Shown: piece after piece, positions 16,725 through 56,490 of the stretch | Layout of the letters: each line of letters begins with the position of its first letter | Numbering within the stretch: position 1 is the stretch's first letter | Source: a virus | Length of the DNA: 64,000 nucleotides | Reading direction: 5' to 3' (one strand) | Virus record (IMG/VR): IMGVR_UViG_3300045450_000145 | Location: 119,547 to 183,546 of that record | Notes under the pieces: generated by a model | What the model saw: the letters and a program-made list of their open reading frames with translations, nothing else | Database searches by the model: none | What the model was told of the DNA's origin: nothing | Position numbers and translations under genes: made by a program

Positions 16725-17330
16725 TTAGATTAACTTTACAATGCCAGTGAAAGCCTCAGAGAATCTCACTGTAAGTTGATTTAAAGAGTTATGAACGATA
16801 GCCAGTGGCTGAACTTCCTGGTTACCAACAAACACTCTAACGATCGGCTCTCTACCTAAACCATGGTTAATAACCCAGTCGGTAGCGGCTTCTGTTTGAT
16901 AGTGAATAAATGAGTAAGTTGGCTTGACATTTCCATCATTGTGCCCAGTTAAAACAATTGCACGACCACTTAATGGTGCGTGAGTATCAACTGTTACTGT
17001 GTTAGCATCAACGATAGTAATTTCGTCAGGAATAATTACTCTATTTGAAGTATCAAACACCTGAACTTGAACACTAGTTGTATTCAAGTTATGTTTGATT
17101 GTCCACATGCTTTGCGCTGTATTTTGTGAGTGCGTGTAAAGAGTTAGCTCTCTAGTTAACGGCACCCAAACAGGCAAGTTACCATTGGTCAAATCAACGC
17201 AGATGTAAAGAATCTTGTTTACAAACGCAAGCTGCCCAACTTTAGGAGTGGACGGGAATCTCTCTTCTATAGGTATAACTGAATTTTGCAGTTCATTCTG
17301 TTGCAGGTTTGCGTGACCGTAGAACTTCAT
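16725..17330 (-). CDS. Structural protein with two HNL/HGL modules
   Basis: MWTIKHNLN and DWVINHGLG repeats; own late promoter at 17361-17367. Confidence 0.7.
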   Translation of the reverse strand: MKFYGHANLQQNELQNSVIPIEERFPSTPKVGQLAFVNKILYICVDLTNGNLPVWVPLTRELTLYTHSQNTAQSMWTIKHNLNTTSVQVQVFDTSNRVIIPDEITIVDANTVTVDTHAPLSGRAIVLTGHNDGNVKPTYSFIHYQTEAATDWVINHGLGREPIVRVFVGNQEVQPLAIVHNSLNQLTVRFSEAFTGIVKLI

Positions 17331-47538: not shown

Positions 47539-48606
47539 ATGAAAATTTCATCTTCAAAGAAGAAAGACATTGGCAAGATTAAGAAGTTAGTGCAATTTAC
47601 AGACGCACATTTTGGTGCGCGTAATAATTCTGATCAACACAACACTGATAATCTTGAATATGTTGACTGGTTAATTTCTAAAATCAAAGAAGAGAAACCA
47701 ACACACATTGCATTTTTGGGTGACTTCTTTGAAAATCGAAATGCCATTAATGTTCGAACAATGGATCGTGCTGCAGAAGCGTGCCGAAAGTTAAATGACT
47801 TAGGCATCCCAATTATCTTCTTAGTTGGAAACCATGATCTATATCATAGGTCAGATCGCAACATCTTTTCAACAGACATCTTTGGCGATTTAGAAAATAT
47901 CCACCTAATCAGTGAACCGACTGAGCTAGATAAAGATTGGTTTGTAACACCATATTTGTTTAGACATGAATATCCAGAATTAGTCAATGACATCAACAAG
48001 CATAAGTATGTGCTAGGCCATTTCGAGTTTAGGAGCTTCGTGGTCACTGGTGCTGATCGAGTTATGGATCACGGACCTGACGCAGATGACTTTGCCGGTC
48101 CAAAGTATATCTTCTCTGGCCACTTCCACAAGCGTCAAGCCAATAAAAACATCATCTACATTGGCAACATCTTTCCAACAAACTTCGGGGATGCCGGGGA
48201 TGCAGCTAGAGGGTGCTGTGTGTTTGACGTTGAGAATGACGATGTCTATTTCCATGACTGGGAGGACGCGCCACTCTTCTTTAAAACTCGACTATCTAGA
48301 GTAATCGGCGGCGAGATGGACTTCCCACCAAAGTCCAGAGTTCGATGTATCATTGACATGGACATCGGCTATTCAGATGTGCAGGCATTACGTGATGAAA
48401 TGATCAAGACCTTTGCCTTACGTGAGTTCTCAGTTGAAGAAGATTTTGCAGCAAAGAAGGAAGCGCTGAGCGAAGGGTTAGATATGGAAGGCGATGTTGA
48501 CCTATCATCCTTGGATAATACAGTTCGACAGTTAATTAGTGATGGTGTTAATCCATCCCCGACGATTGATCCGAAAATCCTAATTGAGTTATACGAAGAA
48601 CTTTAA
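47539..48606 (+). CDS. gp47: Recombination nuclease subunit gp47 (Mre11/SbcD)
   Basis: FTDAHFG, LGDFFE, GNHD, GHF, SGHFH metallophosphoesterase motifs. Confidence 0.93.
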   Translation: MKISSSKKKDIGKIKKLVQFTDAHFGARNNSDQHNTDNLEYVDWLISKIKEEKPTHIAFLGDFFENRNAINVRTMDRAAEACRKLNDLGIPIIFLVGNHDLYHRSDRNIFSTDIFGDLENIHLISEPTELDKDWFVTPYLFRHEYPELVNDINKHKYVLGHFEFRSFVVTGADRVMDHGPDADDFAGPKYIFSGHFHKRQANKNIIYIGNIFPTNFGDAGDAARGCCVFDVENDDVYFHDWEDAPLFFKTRLSRVIGGEMDFPPKSRVRCIIDMDIGYSDVQALRDEMIKTFALREFSVEEDFAAKKEALSEGLDMEGDVDLSSLDNTVRQLISDGVNPSPTIDPKILIELYEEL

Positions 48607-48623
48607 TTACCTGAAAATCCAAT

Positions 48624-48667
48624 AAACGGACCAAGTAATACATGTTACAATGTATCTTGGTCCGTTT
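48624..48667. promoter_or_regulatory. Long inverted repeat with extended -10 (TGTTACAAT) spanning its loop
   Basis: AAACGGACCAAG-TA-ATACAT[GTTACA]ATGTAT-CTTGGTCCGTTT between gp47 and gp46. Confidence 0.55.
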
Positions 48668-48687
48668 TAGTTAGGAACATTAATTTA

Positions 48688-50427
48688 ATGAGCACACCAC
48701 TTATTTTTAAATCTCTTGAGTTGAGGAACTTTTTAAGTTTCGGAAATTCTTTGCAGACAATTTATCTAGATAAGCAAGGCGCTGTCACTATCACTGGCGA
48801 GAACAATGATAAGGGCGGTTCAAATGGCGCTGGCAAAACTACCATTATCAATGCGCTCTGTTATGCGTTATACAACAAGCCATTTGACAATATCTCGTTG
48901 CAACGTCTAATCAATTCTACTAATGCGACTAAAAATACTCAAATGGAAGTCCGCCTTACCTTTGATAAGGACAACATTGAGTATGAAGTTTATCGTGCTA
49001 GAGGTGAAGGTTATAGAATTGAAGTAAAGCGTAACGGCGAGGACATTACTCCAGGTAAGGGCGTATATGAAACTGACGACCTAATTTTGGATATTATCGG
49101 CATCTCATACGAACTCTTCACAAAAACAATTATTTTTTCTGGTAACTCACCCGCATTTTTGCAGCTACCAATTGCGCAGCAGCGTAATCAAATCGAAGAG
49201 CTCTTCAATATTACGATCTTGAGCGAGAAGGCAAAACAGCTTAAAGAAAAGTTGCGTTTAACTGAGGGCGACATTAAAGTTGCTGAGGCGGTTTTGCGGC
49301 AACAGGAAGTTGCAGTTGAATTGCATAAGAAGCACATTAAGGAAGCAGAGCAGCGTATCAATCGATGGGAAGCAAATAGAATAGCCGAGATTAATGAGAT
49401 TGAAGAAACTCTAATTAAAATTTCTGAAATTGACTTTGCAGCTGAGCAAGTACTGCATGACGAGAAAAGTCTATTGCAGCAGCGTGGAACTTACTTAGCG
49501 GCAACTTTAGCGCCGGCGCGCAGGGACTTAAAAAACTTAACTGGTGAAGTTGGTAAGTTGCTCAAGGAGCAGGAGCACCTTGTTGACGCTAAGTGCCCAT
49601 ATTGCACTCAGCAATATGCTGATGCGCCCGCAAAGTTAGTATTATTAGAAGCCGACTTGGCAGAAAAAGGCGCTAAGCTCCTAGAAGTTGAAGCTAATCT
49701 TAATCAACTCGAGAACGAAGATACTGTTCGAAAAGAACGCATCTCAGAAGTAATGAAGCAAATTAAGCACAATGACTTGAATGAATTACTAGATGCACGA
49801 ATGAACACTACTGTTTTAATTAAAAAATTAGAAGAGTTGAAGAAGGCCGAGAATCCACACACTGAAGCATACACGCGCATCTGTGATGAAGAAACTGTGG
49901 ATGTAGATTCAAGCAAGGTGGACATGCTGAAAAGGCGCCTTGATCACCAGCAATTTTTACTTAAATTGCTAACTGACAAGAATTCATTCCTTCGCCGCAG
50001 AATTATTAACAAGACGACCCCATTCCTAAACGGGCGCCTTAACTTCTACACAAACTATTTAGGTCTGCCACACATGGTTAAGTTTGATGCTGATATGTCA
50101 TGCACGGTGGCTGAGTTTGGACGTGAGTTAGATTTTGGTAACTTGTCTGCTGGCGAAAAGAAGAGAGTAAACACTGCAATGTCACTAGCGTTTAGAGACG
50201 TGTTACACCACCTCCATGCTAAAACTAACTTGCTAATTATCGACGAGCTCGATGGCCAGCTTGACGTGCAGGGCATTGAATCAGTAGTTAGAATTCTAAA
50301 GGAAAAATCTAGAGATGAAGACCTTAGCGTGTTTGTTATTTCGCACCACCCATCTGTTCAAGGTAGACTTGACCATGACATGAGGATCGTAAAAGAAAAT
50401 GGTTTCTCGACAGTAATTATGCGATAA
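48688..50427 (+). CDS. gp46: Recombination ATPase subunit gp46 (Rad50/SbcC)
   Basis: Walker A NGAGKT, Zn hook CPYC, signature LSAGE, Walker B LLIIDE, H-loop ISHH. Confidence 0.93.
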   Translation: MSTPLIFKSLELRNFLSFGNSLQTIYLDKQGAVTITGENNDKGGSNGAGKTTIINALCYALYNKPFDNISLQRLINSTNATKNTQMEVRLTFDKDNIEYEVYRARGEGYRIEVKRNGEDITPGKGVYETDDLILDIIGISYELFTKTIIFSGNSPAFLQLPIAQQRNQIEELFNITILSEKAKQLKEKLRLTEGDIKVAEAVLRQQEVAVELHKKHIKEAEQRINRWEANRIAEINEIEETLIKISEIDFAAEQVLHDEKSLLQQRGTYLAATLAPARRDLKNLTGEVGKLLKEQEHLVDAKCPYCTQQYADAPAKLVLLEADLAEKGAKLLEVEANLNQLENEDTVRKERISEVMKQIKHNDLNELLDARMNTTVLIKKLEELKKAENPHTEAYTRICDEETVDVDSSKVDMLKRRLDHQQFLLKLLTDKNSFLRRRIINKTTPFLNGRLNFYTNYLGLPHMVKFDADMSCTVAEFGRELDFGNLSAGEKKRVNTAMSLAFRDVLHHLHAKTNLLIIDELDGQLDVQGIESVVRILKEKSRDEDLSVFVISHHPSVQGRLDHDMRIVKENGFSTVIMR

Positions 50428-50430: not shown

Positions 50431-50454
50431 AGCCCATTATAGATGGGAGTTTAT

Positions 50455-50739
50455 ATGAAAGTTCAAGAACTATTTGAAGCTGAAGATAAGAAGTTTGTTA
50501 GTGGGTTAAAGGGCCAAGCAAAAGCGGCTTACAAACTCGGTAAGGTTGGTGGCACTAGCGGTAAACCTGCATTAAGCAAGTCTGCATTTTCAAAGTCTTT
50601 TGGTGATGGCGAAGAAATTTGGGGTATTTACTCTAAAGGCTATGTAGAAGGTAAGTCAATTTGGCAAGCTAAAGACGACCATGAAGCATGGCAAGAAAAG
50701 CGCGCGGCTTCATTATCTGGCAGAAAGTATCACGAATGA
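50455..50739 (+). CDS. Small probable internal head protein
   Basis: SD GGGAG favours ATG 50455; N-terminus MKVQELFEAE. Confidence 0.65.
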   Translation: MKVQELFEAEDKKFVSGLKGQAKAAYKLGKVGGTSGKPALSKSAFSKSFGDGEEIWGIYSKGYVEGKSIWQAKDDHEAWQEKRAASLSGRKYHE

Positions 50740-51203
50740 AACTTAGCGAAGTAAAATTGTTTGAAGAACCTATTCAGACCAGAACAGCACAGGAAGTCTG
50801 GTCTGAAAATGAATCTTCAGCCGTATCATACGTTATCTCAACTATCTATAATGTCAGGCCAGTTGCTGATAAAGATGATCGCTTTGAGGTAACATACGAT
50901 AAGAATGGCAAACGCACCATTTATGCCACCATGGATCAAGATGACTTAGATGCGTCTTTTGTTCCTATACGGCCAAATCAAAAGCCTGACGTTGAAGGAT
51001 ATACATCATATCGTTCAGCTGACGTGTATGATGCATTTAAATATGGTGGAGATCCAGTCAAGTTGACCTTAGATGGAGATGCCGTAGGTGCCACTGCTAA
51101 GCTTAATAAGGGAGATTATCTGTTAAGACAAGATGATGGCAATGACTTTATCTATACCGTGGAACGTGCCAATTATTTCGATAATTCCTACGTAAAGAAA
51201 TAA
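50736..51203 (+). CDS. Probable internal head protein, PGDYG-like C-terminus
   Basis: ATGA overlap gives MKLSEVKLFEE start; KGDYLLRQDDG...Y.V...F...Y. Confidence 0.55.
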   Translation: MKLSEVKLFEEPIQTRTAQEVWSENESSAVSYVISTIYNVRPVADKDDRFEVTYDKNGKRTIYATMDQDDLDASFVPIRPNQKPDVEGYTSYRSADVYDAFKYGGDPVKLTLDGDAVGATAKLNKGDYLLRQDDGNDFIYTVERANYFDNSYVKK

Positions 51204-51204
51204 A

Positions 51205-51948
51205 ATGAAAATATCTGAATTACTCAGAGAAGCGCTAGATTCAAATCAGGATAATTATCCATCTACACCAAAATTATTACCATATAAATTTGCTGTAGTT
51301 ACATCTCGACCAAAGATGTATGATGCAAATAAAAAGTTCAAAGTTGACTTTGCATTACAGGTAGATAACCAAACTGGTATGGGCTATTATGATAATCTAG
51401 TTGAGGCTGCAGAGAAGCTATTCGGCGCAGATAATTTAATATTCGCGTCTGATAGTTTACATGGGTTACTTGGTAGTAAAACTGACGATAGGACTTACAT
51501 CTTAGCGTCTTCAGAATTAAAGAACGATTTTGCAAGTGTAAGCATCAGAAAGCTATTCAAGAGCCAAGGCGAAGCTGAAAAGTTTGCAGAAGATAGTAGA
51601 GACGAATTTGATGAAAGGCGCGGGATAAAGACATTTATCATACCTATTAGTTATGAACCTAAAATGTCTTTAGATGAGTTTTTATACCATGTTAAAGGTA
51701 CAAAGCCAAAACTAGCAAAAGTACCAAAGGCAAAGCCGAAAGAAATATATAGTGAGGGCGATAAAGTAGTCTTAAAGCCTGAGGGAGAAAATCCACTAGA
51801 GGTTGGAACTGTTATTGGGGTTCAAACACGAAGCAAACCGGACAATTACGTTTACACTGTTGAATTAGATTTGAAATATATCGAAGACGATAATGATGAC
51901 GGCATGAGAGAAGTTTCTGCTGATGAAATTATAGGGTTAGTAAGTTAA
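51205..51948 (+). CDS. Probable internal head protein with C-terminal KOW/SH3-like barrel
   Basis: MKISELLREA tag; EGDKVVL...GTVIGV...YTVEL. Confidence 0.55.
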   Translation: MKISELLREALDSNQDNYPSTPKLLPYKFAVVTSRPKMYDANKKFKVDFALQVDNQTGMGYYDNLVEAAEKLFGADNLIFASDSLHGLLGSKTDDRTYILASSELKNDFASVSIRKLFKSQGEAEKFAEDSRDEFDERRGIKTFIIPISYEPKMSLDEFLYHVKGTKPKLAKVPKAKPKEIYSEGDKVVLKPEGENPLEVGTVIGVQTRSKPDNYVYTVELDLKYIEDDNDDGMREVSADEIIGLVS

Positions 51949-52358
51949 TGAAATTATCAGACTTATTTGAAGCTAAACTGCCTACTCATGATGAACTTGT
52001 TAAGCTGGCTCAAGAATTTCATGATGAAATGGACGGACCGACTGGCAAAAGAGAGTGGGGTGCAACCTTGTCAGATTGTGCTGACGAGTATGGGAACTGC
52101 TCAATGGTGTCTAATACCTTCATTGATTGGTTAGAAGCTCGTGGCATTAAAGGATCATTTATCTCAGGAGCTAATGCTACTAATCCAAAATGGGCAGCAG
52201 TTGCTAAAGGGCCGGACGATCCAGATGCCCACACAGCTGTTCGTGTTGGTTCTACGGTAATTGACTTTACAGCTCGTCAGTTTGATAAAAAGCTTCCTAA
52301 CCCAAGAATCACTGATGTTGGTGACTTCGATGAGGAGTGGGGAATTGTTGATGACTAA
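51948..52358 (+). CDS. Papain/transglutaminase-like Cys-His-Asp enzyme, probable internal head protein
   Basis: GNCSMVS (Cys), DAHTAV (His), VIDFTARQF (Asp); MKLSDLFEAK tag. Confidence 0.55.
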   Translation: MKLSDLFEAKLPTHDELVKLAQEFHDEMDGPTGKREWGATLSDCADEYGNCSMVSNTFIDWLEARGIKGSFISGANATNPKWAAVAKGPDDPDAHTAVRVGSTVIDFTARQFDKKLPNPRITDVGDFDEEWGIVDD

Positions 52359-52413: not shown

Positions 52414-52980
52414 ATGACAGAGAAAGAAAAGCCGGTTGCTAAACCCAAGAGAAAGATGCGACCAGGTGGTGGTAAATCAAAAGGCAATAATTTTGAAGGC
52501 TTAATTGCAAAGAAGCTTTCCGCCGCCTTACCCTTGAATTTTATTCGTTCACCTGGCTCTGGTGCTAGAGTCGGTGGTAAGAATTACGAAAAGATCGGCA
52601 TGATGTTCGGTGAAGATGCGCTCAAGCTATTTGTCGCCGACGTAGTACCGGTCAATGAGAAGCAAGAAGGGCTCCGCTTCAACTACTCAATTGAATGTAA
52701 GTCATATGCAACCCAAGATAACTTCACCTCTTTAGTTAGTGGTAATGCTAATATTTTTAAGTGGTTTGAAGAGTCTGAAGTTGACGCTAAAAAGATTGGC
52801 AAAGCACCAATGTTAATTTTTAAATGGAATCATACTTCTATTTTTGTCATCGTGAATGGGCCTGTATTATCTGAAGTCAGCCCTAAAATCACCATTCAAA
52901 AAGATGGTAAGCACCTTGACGTTTACGAGTTTGAAGAACTTATTAAACACCCAGATTTTTGGGTTCATGAATCACACTAA
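52414..52980 (+). CDS. Holliday junction resolvase, Hjc-like PD-(D/E)XK
   Basis: KSKGNNFE, RSPGSG, ADV, SIECK, PMLIFK motifs. Confidence 0.8.
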   Translation: MTEKEKPVAKPKRKMRPGGGKSKGNNFEGLIAKKLSAALPLNFIRSPGSGARVGGKNYEKIGMMFGEDALKLFVADVVPVNEKQEGLRFNYSIECKSYATQDNFTSLVSGNANIFKWFEESEVDAKKIGKAPMLIFKWNHTSIFVIVNGPVLSEVSPKITIQKDGKHLDVYEFEELIKHPDFWVHESH

Positions 52981-53580
52981 ATGCAAGAAAATAATCTTCC
53001 ACGTTGGAGCGCAAGGCTTGACGCATTCAGGCCCTTAAAGAACTCTGGCTTTGCTGACCTAAATGCAATTGTCACGGCCCACTTCTATGCGCATGAATCT
53101 GCAACTGACTTCTTAGGCCCATATAATGCCAGACAGAGAAGTTCAACATTACCATACACCCCACCTGACAAGGAACTATTATCTCAAAATGTCAAGCAGG
53201 GTAAGATGAATGACATCTCATATAATGCATTGCTAAATTCAATCATTAAGTTTTGCCAACAACATAAGGGGCTTCGTGCGCTACCGACTCCACACCCGTC
53301 CGTCATTCACTCAATTCAATTGCCATTCCCTGCATTTGAACTTAAGCAGAATAATTTAGATACTGAAGTCTACATTATGGGTGCTGACCATCCACTGGTA
53401 GTTAAAGGGCTGCGTGATGCTAATCAAATTAAGTTCATTATCGTTAGACCTAAATTAAGTTCACTCGGTACTGCGTCCGCGCTAAAGTGGGAAGTTCTCT
53501 TCTTCAAACATGCTCTCGGCTATATTCCAGATTGGGTCGACAGTAATATTAATCCTCGCTGGTCTGGAATTTATTCATAA
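52981..53580 (+). CDS. Hypothetical protein, weak resemblance to TnpB WED/REC half
   Basis: 199 aa, abuts resolvase stop (TAAATG); resemblance by eye only. Confidence 0.6.
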   Translation: MQENNLPRWSARLDAFRPLKNSGFADLNAIVTAHFYAHESATDFLGPYNARQRSSTLPYTPPDKELLSQNVKQGKMNDISYNALLNSIIKFCQQHKGLRALPTPHPSVIHSIQLPFPAFELKQNNLDTEVYIMGADHPLVVKGLRDANQIKFIIVRPKLSSLGTASALKWEVLFFKHALGYIPDWVDSNINPRWSGIYS

Positions 53581-53831: not shown

Positions 53832-54440
53832 ATGAAGCCAATTACATTCAAGGAACACCTTTTCCTATCTGAGTCACGTCGCAGTGATTTGACATATACT
53901 GAAAAGCAAGTTAAGGGAAATCTAGATAGAGTTTCTACTGCTCTAGCTGGGCATGAAGCTGGCAACATGACTAAATTAGCGAAGCGCTACGCTAGATTAG
54001 AAGTTAGTTTAAAAAATCTAGCTGAAAAGCGCGAAGCTTTAAATGAAAGGCTGAAGGAAGATGTTGGCAATCTATTTGACGCTGAAGATGCGGTGCTAAC
54101 TAGAGTCGTCTCCACAGCCCAATTCACTGTCACGTTAGCTAAAGAAATTAAGAAGACCACCCCGACTAAATCAGTTGATTATGAGTCTATTGTTAAGGCA
54201 TTAACATCTTTGATTCCTGAAGAGCTTCAAAGCAAGGTAGATGAAATTACGCAGCAATATACAAAGCTTATTCCACCTAAGGACCCCGTCAAGAAGGTGT
54301 CAGTAAGCAAGGAAATTACTGAAGCTTTTAATTTTAGTAAAATTAAAATTATGATTAGTTCATTTGTCAAGAAGATTACTTCATGGGCGAGCCGCTTTGA
54401 CGACAAGCTAGATTACTTAAAAGCTAAAGCTGATCTTTAA
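53832..54440 (+). CDS. Probable internal head protein, coiled-coil
   Basis: MKPITFKEHLFLSES N-terminus resembles T4 IP capsid-targeting sequence; internal ITEA site. Confidence 0.6.
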   Translation: MKPITFKEHLFLSESRRSDLTYTEKQVKGNLDRVSTALAGHEAGNMTKLAKRYARLEVSLKNLAEKREALNERLKEDVGNLFDAEDAVLTRVVSTAQFTVTLAKEIKKTTPTKSVDYESIVKALTSLIPEELQSKVDEITQQYTKLIPPKDPVKKVSVSKEITEAFNFSKIKIMISSFVKKITSWASRFDDKLDYLKAKADL

Positions 54441-54467
54441 TTAGTTTAACATATAAATTTTGCTGTG

Positions 54468-54476
54468 TGTTATAAT
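54468..54476 (+). promoter_or_regulatory. Extended -10 promoter TGTTATAAT
   Basis: Perfect TGn-TATAAT 20 nt upstream of ORF 54497. Confidence 0.65.
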
Positions 54477-54496
54477 GATCTTTTTACGAGGTCATT

Positions 54497-54751
54497 ATGA
54501 ACGGCAAACAAGCAAAGCGGCTCCGACGTATAGCCATGGGTCTAGCAGTTACGCTAGATGAGAAGGGCACAAAAATCCATGAAAACGGCTACGTGTTGCA
54601 AGACAACGGCGTTGCACTTAAGATTGGTGAGACCGAACTGAAAAAGAAACCATCTGTAAAAGTTCGACACGATTCCCTCAAAGGCATCTATAATACTCTG
54701 AAGAAGGGTATTAACAAGCAACACATCGAAAAGCCACCAGCAGAACTGTGA
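54497..54751 (+). CDS. Small basic hypothetical protein
   Basis: SD GAGG; MNGKQAKRLRR start; GTGA overlap with next gene. Confidence 0.7.
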   Translation: MNGKQAKRLRRIAMGLAVTLDEKGTKIHENGYVLQDNGVALKIGETELKKKPSVKVRHDSLKGIYNTLKKGINKQHIEKPPAEL

Positions 54752-55992
54752 CCGCAATCTACAAAGTAGCATCTAAGAGAAGACTTCACTTCTCTGATCC
54801 TCTACATGTGGGGCGTTTCTACCCACATGTAGAGCGTCGCCATCCAAAAATTATGCAGAAGAGGCAGGACTTGATCCTGTACTTGGCAAACATTCACGCC
54901 GCGGCGTTAAAGTCTGGGATGCCACTTGGATTCTGCGAAATCCCAATGCGACTCATGTCACTTCGTGAATGGGTCTATGACTATCGGAATGTCTTCGATT
55001 ATTTCTTTGACGTTAAGCAGACTGGTTATAACTTGGGTGATAAGCATGAAATCTCCATTGTCACCCCAAAAAAGCTAAGTATTACTCAAACTAATGACGC
55101 TAAAACCATCACAAATCAATTAATGTATGTTCCTCCACCCATCCCAAAAGATGGTGTTGTATCAAAGGTATACATTCAATTGCATAAGAAGGAAGAAATC
55201 CTAGATAAATTGGCGCAAGCTAATAGGTTGGATCTGCATGCTCCAGTTACGTGGCTGCTTAGTCAAAAAACTGACGAGATGAACTTTTACTTCTCTAGAG
55301 CTGGCAAGCTACAGCTTCGTGACACGTCAACATGGCCTATTCAGGCGGTGGAAACATGGCCAAGCTGGTTAAGAGAGGCACTGTTTGGGCCGGGTATTGA
55401 CATTGAGTCTGCATACACGCAATTTTTACTCGATCATGTAAAACAGGCATATAAGGGCCGGGAAAACCTGGTGGGTATTTTATATCCAGACTTAGTGAGG
55501 TCCTTAGATGATAAAGTGCAATGGCGCAATGAGCTGTGTAAGGACCTGCTTGGCATGGAAATCAACGAAGAAAATATCTCCATCGTTAAGAAAATCTGCA
55601 TGAGCTTGGCAAATGGCTCTAAAGTTTCGCCAGCAATTATGATCGGGAACGGCGGCTTCTCAGTTACCAGAGATATTGTCATTCAGTCAACTCAAGATAT
55701 ATCGCCAACTAATCTAATTAGAATTGGAGAGCGGTTATCTAGAATTTCAAAGCAGTATGCACAGGCGCGGAAGGTAGTGTGCACACTAGACATTAAAATT
55801 AGTCCGTCTAGAATTAACCAGAAGAAAGTATTTCAATCCTACTTTGAGTGGGAACGTGAAGCTCGTTATGAAATATGGGAAGCTGTTGGCAGGCACGGCA
55901 TTATGGTGCATGACGGGCTTGATGGTATCCCGCAGCAATACATTGAAGACCTACCAAACATCATTAAGACTCTCAACATTAAAATCAGCTAA
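54748..55992 (+). CDS. Minimal PolA/T7-RNAP-superfamily polymerase-like protein
   Basis: AGKL...P...R..LF...D218 (motif A), K281KICMSLANGSK (motif B-like), MVH388D389G (motif C). Confidence 0.55.
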   Translation: MTAIYKVASKRRLHFSDPLHVGRFYPHVERRHPKIMQKRQDLILYLANIHAAALKSGMPLGFCEIPMRLMSLREWVYDYRNVFDYFFDVKQTGYNLGDKHEISIVTPKKLSITQTNDAKTITNQLMYVPPPIPKDGVVSKVYIQLHKKEEILDKLAQANRLDLHAPVTWLLSQKTDEMNFYFSRAGKLQLRDTSTWPIQAVETWPSWLREALFGPGIDIESAYTQFLLDHVKQAYKGRENLVGILYPDLVRSLDDKVQWRNELCKDLLGMEINEENISIVKKICMSLANGSKVSPAIMIGNGGFSVTRDIVIQSTQDISPTNLIRIGERLSRISKQYAQARKVVCTLDIKISPSRINQKKVFQSYFEWEREARYEIWEAVGRHGIMVHDGLDGIPQQYIEDLPNIIKTLNIKIS

Positions 55993-56025
55993 TATTAATA
56001 GCATTAGTTAGCAAATAGCGGTTAC

Positions 56026-56054
56026 AAAAAGGGGACTTATAAAGTCCCCTTTTT
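56026..56054. terminator. Bidirectional intrinsic terminator
   Basis: AAAAAGGGGACTT-ATA-AAGTCCCCTTTTT between convergent genes. Confidence 0.9.
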
Positions 56055-56061
56055 ATTTTTC

Positions 56062-56490
56062 TCAGTCTAAAAATACTATTCGTGCAGTTCCATTCTGGGC
56101 ACTACTAAAAGTTAACTTAACTGTGTTTTCGTCTACGATCTGAATTGTGTTAGGAATAATAACAAACTTATCATCGTCAAATGCCTGCACGATTACATTC
56201 TCACTATCTAGATTATGTTGAATAGTCCAGACGCTGACGTTAGTCGTTGATCGGAAGACTGCGCTTCTTAATCCACTGTTGCCGCCAATTGACGGGTCTG
56301 AAACTGCAACACCTTGCAGTTTGCCATTAACTAACGCTAGGATTTCTCCCTCTTGTAATTCAATCGCGTCAAATTGACGTGGTCCCGGACCACGTCTGAC
56401 AATGATGGTTTCTTGGCTAACGTCGTTATTTAAGTAGCCACGCTTAGGTAGTTCTTGCTGAACAAACGACTCAAATGCTGATGCGGCCAT
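56062..56490 (-). CDS. Structural protein with C-terminal HNL module
   Basis: VWTIQHNLDSENVIVQAFD...IIPNTI...VKLTFS...GTARI. Confidence 0.65.
   Translation of the reverse strand: MAASAFESFVQQELPKRGYLNNDVSQETIIVRRGPGPRQFDAIELQEGEILALVNGKLQGVAVSDPSIGGNSGLRSAVFRSTTNVSVWTIQHNLDSENVIVQAFDDDKFVIIPNTIQIVDENTVKLTFSSAQNGTARIVFLD

Follow-up and report, generated by a model that had tools for sequence, protein, structure and literature searches.

A conserved minimal superfamily-A polymerase with altered motifs and a fixed gene context in RsoM2USA-like jumbo phages

PolB, a DnaG-type primase and the host RNA polymerase are believed to suffice for T4-like phages. Why, then, should a T4-like jumbo phage encode an additional 414-aa protein with the catalytic motifs shared by Pol I and T7 RNA polymerase (RNAP), and what would this protein do? 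The gene lies in the window, the whole stretch of 64,000 nucleotides that was analysed, within a 183-kb contig that was a fragment (51% complete) of a T4-like jumbo phage. PolB, a 5'-3' exonuclease-like gene, DnaB, gp47 and gp46 were found in the contig together with the gp61-type primase and gp55 on which the sequence-only reading had let the phage rely. The closest cultured phage, as judged by the baseplate hub (48%), was Ralstonia phage RsoM2USA, and the genomes of relatives reached up to 310-376 kb. Both open reading frames of the unit, its motifs, the promoter-like site and the terminator lay where the sequence-only reading had placed them, and the features of the locus were as follows.

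47539-50427, plus strand: gp47/gp46 pair (SbcD/SbcC, Mre11/Rad50-like; PHROG 100 and 77), head of a conserved block
52414-52980, plus strand: PD-(D/E)XK Holliday-junction-resolvase-like nuclease (Pfam PF24608, E 5e-22; PHROG 244, E 8e-15)
52981-53580, plus strand: 199-aa conserved upstream neighbour with a predicted TnpB/Cas12f-like WED+REC fold without RuvC (AlphaFold and structural search)
54466-54476, plus strand: extended -10 promoter-like site, a perfect TRTGnTATAAT (sequence, motif strand bias, motif position)
54497-54751, plus strand: 84-aa basic protein, a conserved neighbour, with a GAGG ribosome-binding site at 54488-54491
54748-55992, plus strand: 414-aa minimal superfamily-A polymerase (fold, conserved residues)
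Within the polymerase, from structure and sequence: N-domain, about residues 1-130; reduced thumb, about 135-185; hairpin R191
Within the polymerase, from sequence register: motif A D218 (gate Y223); fingers K256/R260/K281; motif C H388-D389
56026-56054, no strand assigned: intrinsic-terminator-like hairpin of 13 pairs with A/T runs on both sides (sequence)

Homologues of the polymerase were numerous and without annotation. A word search recovered 248 of them and an exhaustive profile search 51 clusters, none annotated; neither the polymerase nor its 107 aligned homologues matched a Pfam or PHROG family, no sequence match was present in the PDB, and no paralogue was found within the contig. 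A tblastn search of 50,697 phage records with the query and four distant homologues returned nothing, no homologue was found in a cultured phage, and the polymerase was not described in the replication-enzyme passages of the jumbo-phage survey PMC7824862. A weak search for longer fused forms, covering 889-2535 aa only, found none. Three matches from prokaryotic genome bins, considered as cellular genes, proved to lie on phage contigs of short length that share the gene order. Conservation was counted over 157 non-redundant full-length homologues, in which G93, R191, P197, P205, R209, D218, R260, K281, G290, E369, G384, H388 and D389 were each retained in at least 156. Both aspartates proposed as catalytic were confirmed as conserved (D218 in 157/157, D389 in 156/157 with one gap), and R191 and K281 were invariant. 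Such a pattern suggested an active enzyme under selection. Taken with the predicted fold below, it indicated that the polymerase is real, conserved and very probably active.

The AlphaFold model of the polymerase (pLDDT 91, pTM 0.85) was compared with 48,161 chains, and the best 20 structural matches were all family-A DNA polymerases or T7-type RNAPs. Pol theta was aligned over residues 136-414 (Z 10.5, rmsd 4.2, 243 aligned), T7 RNAP reached Z 8.3 and mitochondrial RNAP Z 8.4, and after the top 20 came domains of family B and of the RRM type, for which the alignment covered 214-414. A second structural comparison gave Pol theta Z 11.7 (rmsd 4.5, 246 aligned), KlenTaq 10.8 and T7 DNAP 10.3. 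Among predicted viral structures, the best matches were uncharacterised phage proteins and virophage/giant-virus polymerase-helicases, the Atlas matches being D5-associated Preplasmiviricota (virophage/PLV) proteins. The model contained an RRM palm with the fingers inserted after strand 1, and the two catalytic Asp, the hairpin Arg and the motif-B Lys of superfamily A were all present. The PolA/T7 RNAP palm claimed from sequence was therefore supported by fold matches and conservation, and the predicted adjacency of D218 and D389 in it was borne out indirectly, by the palm/RRM alignments spanning 214-414.

Structural alignments began at residues 127-139, and residues 1 to about 130 matched no polymerase, so that the separate N-domain of the sequence-only reading stood but its length was closer to 130 than to the proposed 150 residues. 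Its helix-helix-hairpin order suggested a winged helix in the model, and an Atlas feature search with residues 1-130 returned nothing above 0.82. Since only one acidic residue was conserved in residues 1-180, the polymerase has neither a 3'-5' nor a 5'-3' exonuclease domain, active or dead; with only about 130 residues before the matched region, it is a stand-alone enzyme, as had been described.

Active-site equivalences were read from the sequence, placed in register with those of Pol I and T7 RNAP, and not from a superposed active site. The elements A185-GKL, P205, R209, L212-F213, D218, K281-S291 and H388-D389-G390 were all located at these residues, and R191, D218, K281 and D389 corresponded to R668/R425, D705/D537, K758/K631 and D882/D812 (Pol I/T7 RNAP). 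The proposed register of the K281 motif with T7 RNAP motif B held: the BLOSUM score of K281-K292 against K631-K642 was matched by 0.04% of protein shuffles, an optimistic figure as the motif was picked after the fact. The Arg and Tyr of motif B are regarded as near-universal. Here they were indeed replaced, by I277 and N289; the K-4 position was I/L/V in 126/157 homologues and Arg in only 10/157, and the Tyr position was Asn in 150/157. The lost Arg may be replaced by K256 (144/157) and R260 (156/157), both on the helix preceding motif B (helix N). The fingers Asp, D255, was kept in 113/157. The sugar-gate position (D218+5) was Tyr or Phe in 147/157 and Y223 in this phage; it is E710 in Pol I, G542 in T7 RNAP, and Tyr in family B, including the phage's own PolB (DINSLY). 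The role of this motif-A gate has been described for RB69 Y416 (PMC3424534), and T7 RNAP Y639F accepts dNTPs (PMC9533422). Based on the aromatic gate residue and the lack of a Tyr639 equivalent, dNTPs are most likely favoured over rNTPs. Neither class signature was complete: the RxxxKxxxFxxxYG and gate Glu of Pol I/T7 DNAP were altered at I277, M285, N289 and Y223, and the G542, R627 and Y639 of T7-like RNAPs at Y223, I277 and N289.

These residues bear on whether the protein could be a minimal single-subunit RNAP, producing primers or R-loop transcripts at origins, or else short RNAs, with a start site recognised by the N-domain. Motif B was closest to that of T7 RNAP (M285/L287/A288/G290/S291), M285, S291 and Q225 matching T7 RNAP M635, S641 and Q544 and not Pol I; the thumb-end spacing was RNAP-like, RNAPs were among the fold matches (Z 8.3-8.4), and RNA synthesis was considered for the divPolA2 proteins by Yutin et al. 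(PMC11348598). On the other hand, the T7-like motif B does not speak for RNA synthesis, because the residues for rNTP use, G542 and Y639, were replaced by an aromatic residue (Y223) and Asn (N289). Moreover, DNA polymerases scored higher (Z 10-11.7 vs 8.4), the alignments to T7 and mitochondrial RNAP began at residue 127 with no T7-type promoter-binding N-domain aligned, and the phage shows promoters of the sigma70 and gp55 types. An RNAP was thus considered unlikely, while being the strongest of the alternatives. A template-independent nucleotidyltransferase, adding tails to ends or producing a short signal or decoy polymer, would fit the replacement of the motif-B Arg and Tyr and the Pol I N845/Q849 segment, for which no evident match was found. 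Against it stands the invariance of R209 and of the hairpin Arg R191 (= R668/R425), which contacts template or primer, and the Asn in motif B ceased to be an oddity, as most divPolA2 proteins have it too, while the distant 669-752 aa relatives P0162 and P0165 (L056-L058) keep K-x7-YG there. We regard such a transferase as improbable.

The end of the thumb suggested how synthesis might start. The spacing E202-R209 was 7 residues in 157/157 homologues; the corresponding distance is 6 in T7 RNAP and 13 in Pol I (Q677-R690). For RNAPs and the DNA primase CcPol, a short final thumb helix has been connected with space for the initiating triphosphate (Bebel et al., PMC7581432). By this precedent, the short spacing suggests that primer-free starts may be possible for the phage polymerase as well.

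The neighbourhoods of about 80 distinct loci were compared, and the polymerase was found at a fixed locus in the RsoM2USA-like jumbo clade. The order was gp55, gp47, gp46, (inserts), resolvase, 199-aa gene, 84-aa gene and polymerase, followed on the opposite strand by a 74-aa gene and the baseplate hub. It was retained at 28% identity and in members only about 20% identical (L154, L155), with the hub downstream of the polymerase in 50/58 loci. In 10 loci, about one fifth of the relatives (L010, L023-L026, L029, L030, L032 and L051 included), the PD-(D/E)XK resolvase was replaced in place by an endonuclease-VII-like gene.

The reading preferred here, with a probability of roughly one half, is that of a proofreading-free, dNTP-using and possibly self-priming helper DNA polymerase for recombination-linked synthesis. 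The enzyme would be an active, template-directed member of superfamily A without proofreading and most likely supplied with dNTPs. The gp46/47 nuclease and the junction resolvase would generate DNA ends, gaps or forks during recombination-dependent replication; the polymerase, whose N-domain may bind DNA, would make short DNA tracts there, probably without needing a primer, and PolB would then carry out the bulk synthesis. The link to recombination is drawn from gene order only (resolvase upstream in 43/47 loci, gp46 within 6 kb upstream in 41/47), and it calls for caution: a handful of loci are relocated (L107, L145-148), and genes of jumbo phages may stay in order even when their functions are not coupled. 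The helper reading itself is tempered by the absent motif-B Arg and Tyr, by the RNAP-like M285, S291 and Q225, by the primase that the phage already has, by the apparent lack of a linked SSB/OB partner and of a helicase as in CcPol-MP (no helicase was linked to the polymerase in the neighbourhoods examined), and by the absence of the polymerase gene from RsoM2USA, which shows that the gene is dispensable in the clade.

The immediate surroundings of the gene were then set against those of its relatives. The 84-aa basic ORF (18 K/R vs 9 D/E) precedes the polymerase as claimed, and the polymerase GTG start, at a position common to the homologues (consensus MTxIY), overlaps its TGA stop. As a partner, the 84-aa gene proved a frequent neighbour, within 1.6 kb upstream in 51/61 loci and abutting in 23, but not an obligate one, because it is kept in two relatives without the polymerase, RsoM2USA and L092; its product is short, basic and poorly conserved in the middle. 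The perfect extended -10 was confirmed as TGTGTTATAAT at 54466-54476 (TG at 54468-69, TATAAT at 54471-76), with no -35 consensus found before it; a sequence scanner did not list the site. The pattern TGnTA(C/T)AAT was not enriched in the 183-kb contig (29 copies vs 26 +/- 6 in shuffles). It was strongly biased in strand (26/29 on one strand, p = 1.5e-5), with many copies directly 5' of start codons, one of them before gp46. Given this bias and these positions, the putative promoter is read as the phage's generic early signal of the host sigma70 type, nothing special to the polymerase gene. The strong terminator held to close the unit corresponds to the 13-pair hairpin, the longest within 10 kb, which probably acts in both directions and would also end the convergent gene at 56062-56490.

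An operon of its own, as proposed for the polymerase, is found in this genome but is not general among the relatives. The 84-aa gene starts at most 25 nt from the upstream 199-aa gene in 25/47 relatives, and a -10-like hexamer preceded it in 6/11 loci with long inserts, compared with 4/25 abutting loci. The separate operon is best read as secondary, following the insertion of genes with late-type TAAATA signals. Inserted genes starting with MK(L/V/I/P) after such signals occupy 50443-52358 and 53832-54440 of the window and break the recombination block. Where the locus has moved, the 84-aa gene and a polymerase of 371 aa were relocated together in L145-148.

The 199-aa neighbour raised another alternative. 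Its AlphaFold model had a pLDDT of 92, and its best 29 structural matches were all Cas12, TnpB or Fanzor proteins (Z 11.0, rmsd 4.9, 168 aligned), so that its predicted fold is the WED+REC lobe of TnpB/Cas12f without RuvC. Similar folds were seen in proteins of Erwinia phage Yoloswag and Dickeya phage JA11. The gene is a core gene of the jumbo clade (gp373 in cultured RsoM2USA). The polymerase might work with this lobe, which would open or bind target DNA, whether guided by an RNA or not, for the polymerase to start there. The gene lay upstream of the polymerase in 35/47 loci, the polymerase was present in 39 of 41 informative loci recovered with the 199-aa gene, the relocated locus L107 keeps the two together, and WED is OB-like, as is the SSB partner of CcPol (10.1101/2022.12.02.518924). 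Nevertheless, each is lost without the other: a complete 358-kb genome with the polymerase had no match to the 199-aa family, and RsoM2USA has the 199-aa gene without the polymerase, so the 199-aa gene is not an obligate partner. No guide RNA was found for the 199-aa protein, and many loci have no room for one beside the two genes. Such a partnership is accordingly judged very improbable. The same low standing is given to its fullest form, a self-priming polymerase with a rebuilt nucleotide site, aimed by a domesticated, nuclease-free and possibly RNA-guided TnpB/Cas12f-like lobe and replaced by a structured RNA where it was lost. If true, it would give jumbo phages a targeted start of DNA synthesis.

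Three kinds of minimal polymerase were compared with the jumbo-phage protein. The TV-Pol family (Iyer, Abhiman and Aravind 2008, PMC2579912), e.g. the D5-fused polymerase domains of virophages, shares the minimal superfamily-A core with thumb and without nuclease domains, the hairpin Arg, the two catalytic Asp and the fingers Lys, as well as coexistence with normal replication enzymes; D5-associated virophage/PLV proteins were also the nearest predicted structures. In contrast, the TV-Pol RxxxK and conserved fingers Asp were not general here (Arg 10/157; D255 113/157), and linkage to a D5 helicase, TV-PolN, integrase, gamma-delta-type resolvase or transposase was absent from the roughly 80 loci. 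The polymerase is passed on at a constant place in the jumbo-phage core and not on a mobile element, and TV-PolN is all-helical whereas the N-domain here is predicted to be alpha/beta. The divPolA2 proteins of barbaviruses and ICP1-like phages (Yutin et al. 2024, PMC11348598) likewise combine a novel N-domain with a PolA palm in about 430 aa, without exonuclease and in addition to PolB. Whole-length Foldseek matches to them were weak (E 0.02-0.04), and tblastn with the polymerase gave no match in phages. Membership in divPolA2 was rejected, as a single-sequence hhalign match (E 0.004) was lost with the profile (probability 0.1%). Moreover, divPolA2 proteins keep RxxxK, mostly have His at the gate and occur in variable contexts, which the polymerase here does not. 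The PolA-SSB primases (CcPol-MP) of SCCmec and Firmicute elements (PMC7581432; 10.1101/2022.12.02.518924), of which CcPol is the model for primer-free DNA synthesis by a PolA fold (PMC7581432), have in common with it the PolA core, the short last thumb helix and a small adjoining gene. CcPol, however, keeps Pol I-type E710/F762 equivalents, and its partner is an OB-fold SSB beside a helicase; here the small neighbour is the 84-aa basic protein, and the WED domain, which is OB-like and encoded two to three genes before the polymerase, is lost independently of it. With Pol I, T7 DNAP, Pol theta and T7-type RNAPs, the protein shares the predicted palm-fingers fold and the equivalents of R191, D218, K281 and D389, but at 10-15% identity, with a reduced thumb, without exonuclease, without the motif-B Arg and Tyr and with Tyr at the sugar gate; it is not half as large as T7 RNAP.

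By its predicted fold and residues, and not by sequence profile, the polymerase is assigned to the TV-Pol-like kind. It is a new sequence family inside a kind of minimal polymerase already described; what is new lies in the family itself, in the changes to its motifs and in the constancy of its context. Among the TV-Pol, divPolA2 and CcPol types, an assay was reported in the cited literature for CcPol only. A conserved extra enzyme of 414 aa with mixed features of RNA and DNA polymerases would be small, easy to express and well suited to testing what governs sugar choice and primer-free initiation in the PolA fold, and what 'extra' phage polymerases such as TV-Pol and divPolA2 do; a compact self-priming DNA polymerase would also have technical use.

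The two relatives without the polymerase bear on a further possibility, namely a site-specific initiator or self-priming enzyme at the phage origin or genome end, its position in the gp46/47 block reflecting shared early expression only. No decayed polymerase was detected in the gap of RsoM2USA or L092 by six-frame profile matching. Each site was instead occupied by a long stretch that lacked any sizeable ORF and folded better than shuffles. In RsoM2USA it spans 1.1 kb (L059:15650-16790; MG752970 about 251650-252790) in the place of the polymerase; a terminator-like hairpin flanks it on either side, and it has long-range inverted repeats and a low folding energy (z -2.4 to -5.0; one coding control also gave -3.9). 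It matched no Rfam family, was unique among phage records, and is a candidate long structured RNA or origin. The 0.7-kb non-coding stretch of L092 (L092:2893-3590, z -4.3), at the same site and ending in a terminator, showed no similarity to it and matched no Rfam family. If these stretches were alternative priming devices, they would speak for an initiator, as would the separate N-domain with its winged-helix-like order of helices and strands and the promoter-like site of its own here and in some relatives. Yet the two stretches are mutually unrelated and may be mere other insertions, no phage origin was identified, and the N-domain lacks an Atlas feature above 0.82. An initiator at origin or end is thus held to be rather improbable, a little less so than the transferase, and the helper DNA polymerase is preferred.

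Two minor observations were made in the relatives. The gene of the distant homologue P0162 directly precedes a T4-type large terminase. RsoM2USA, as seen by eye in translation, apparently has an unannotated homologue of the 74-aa gene beside the baseplate hub (L059 about 16820-17030, minus strand).
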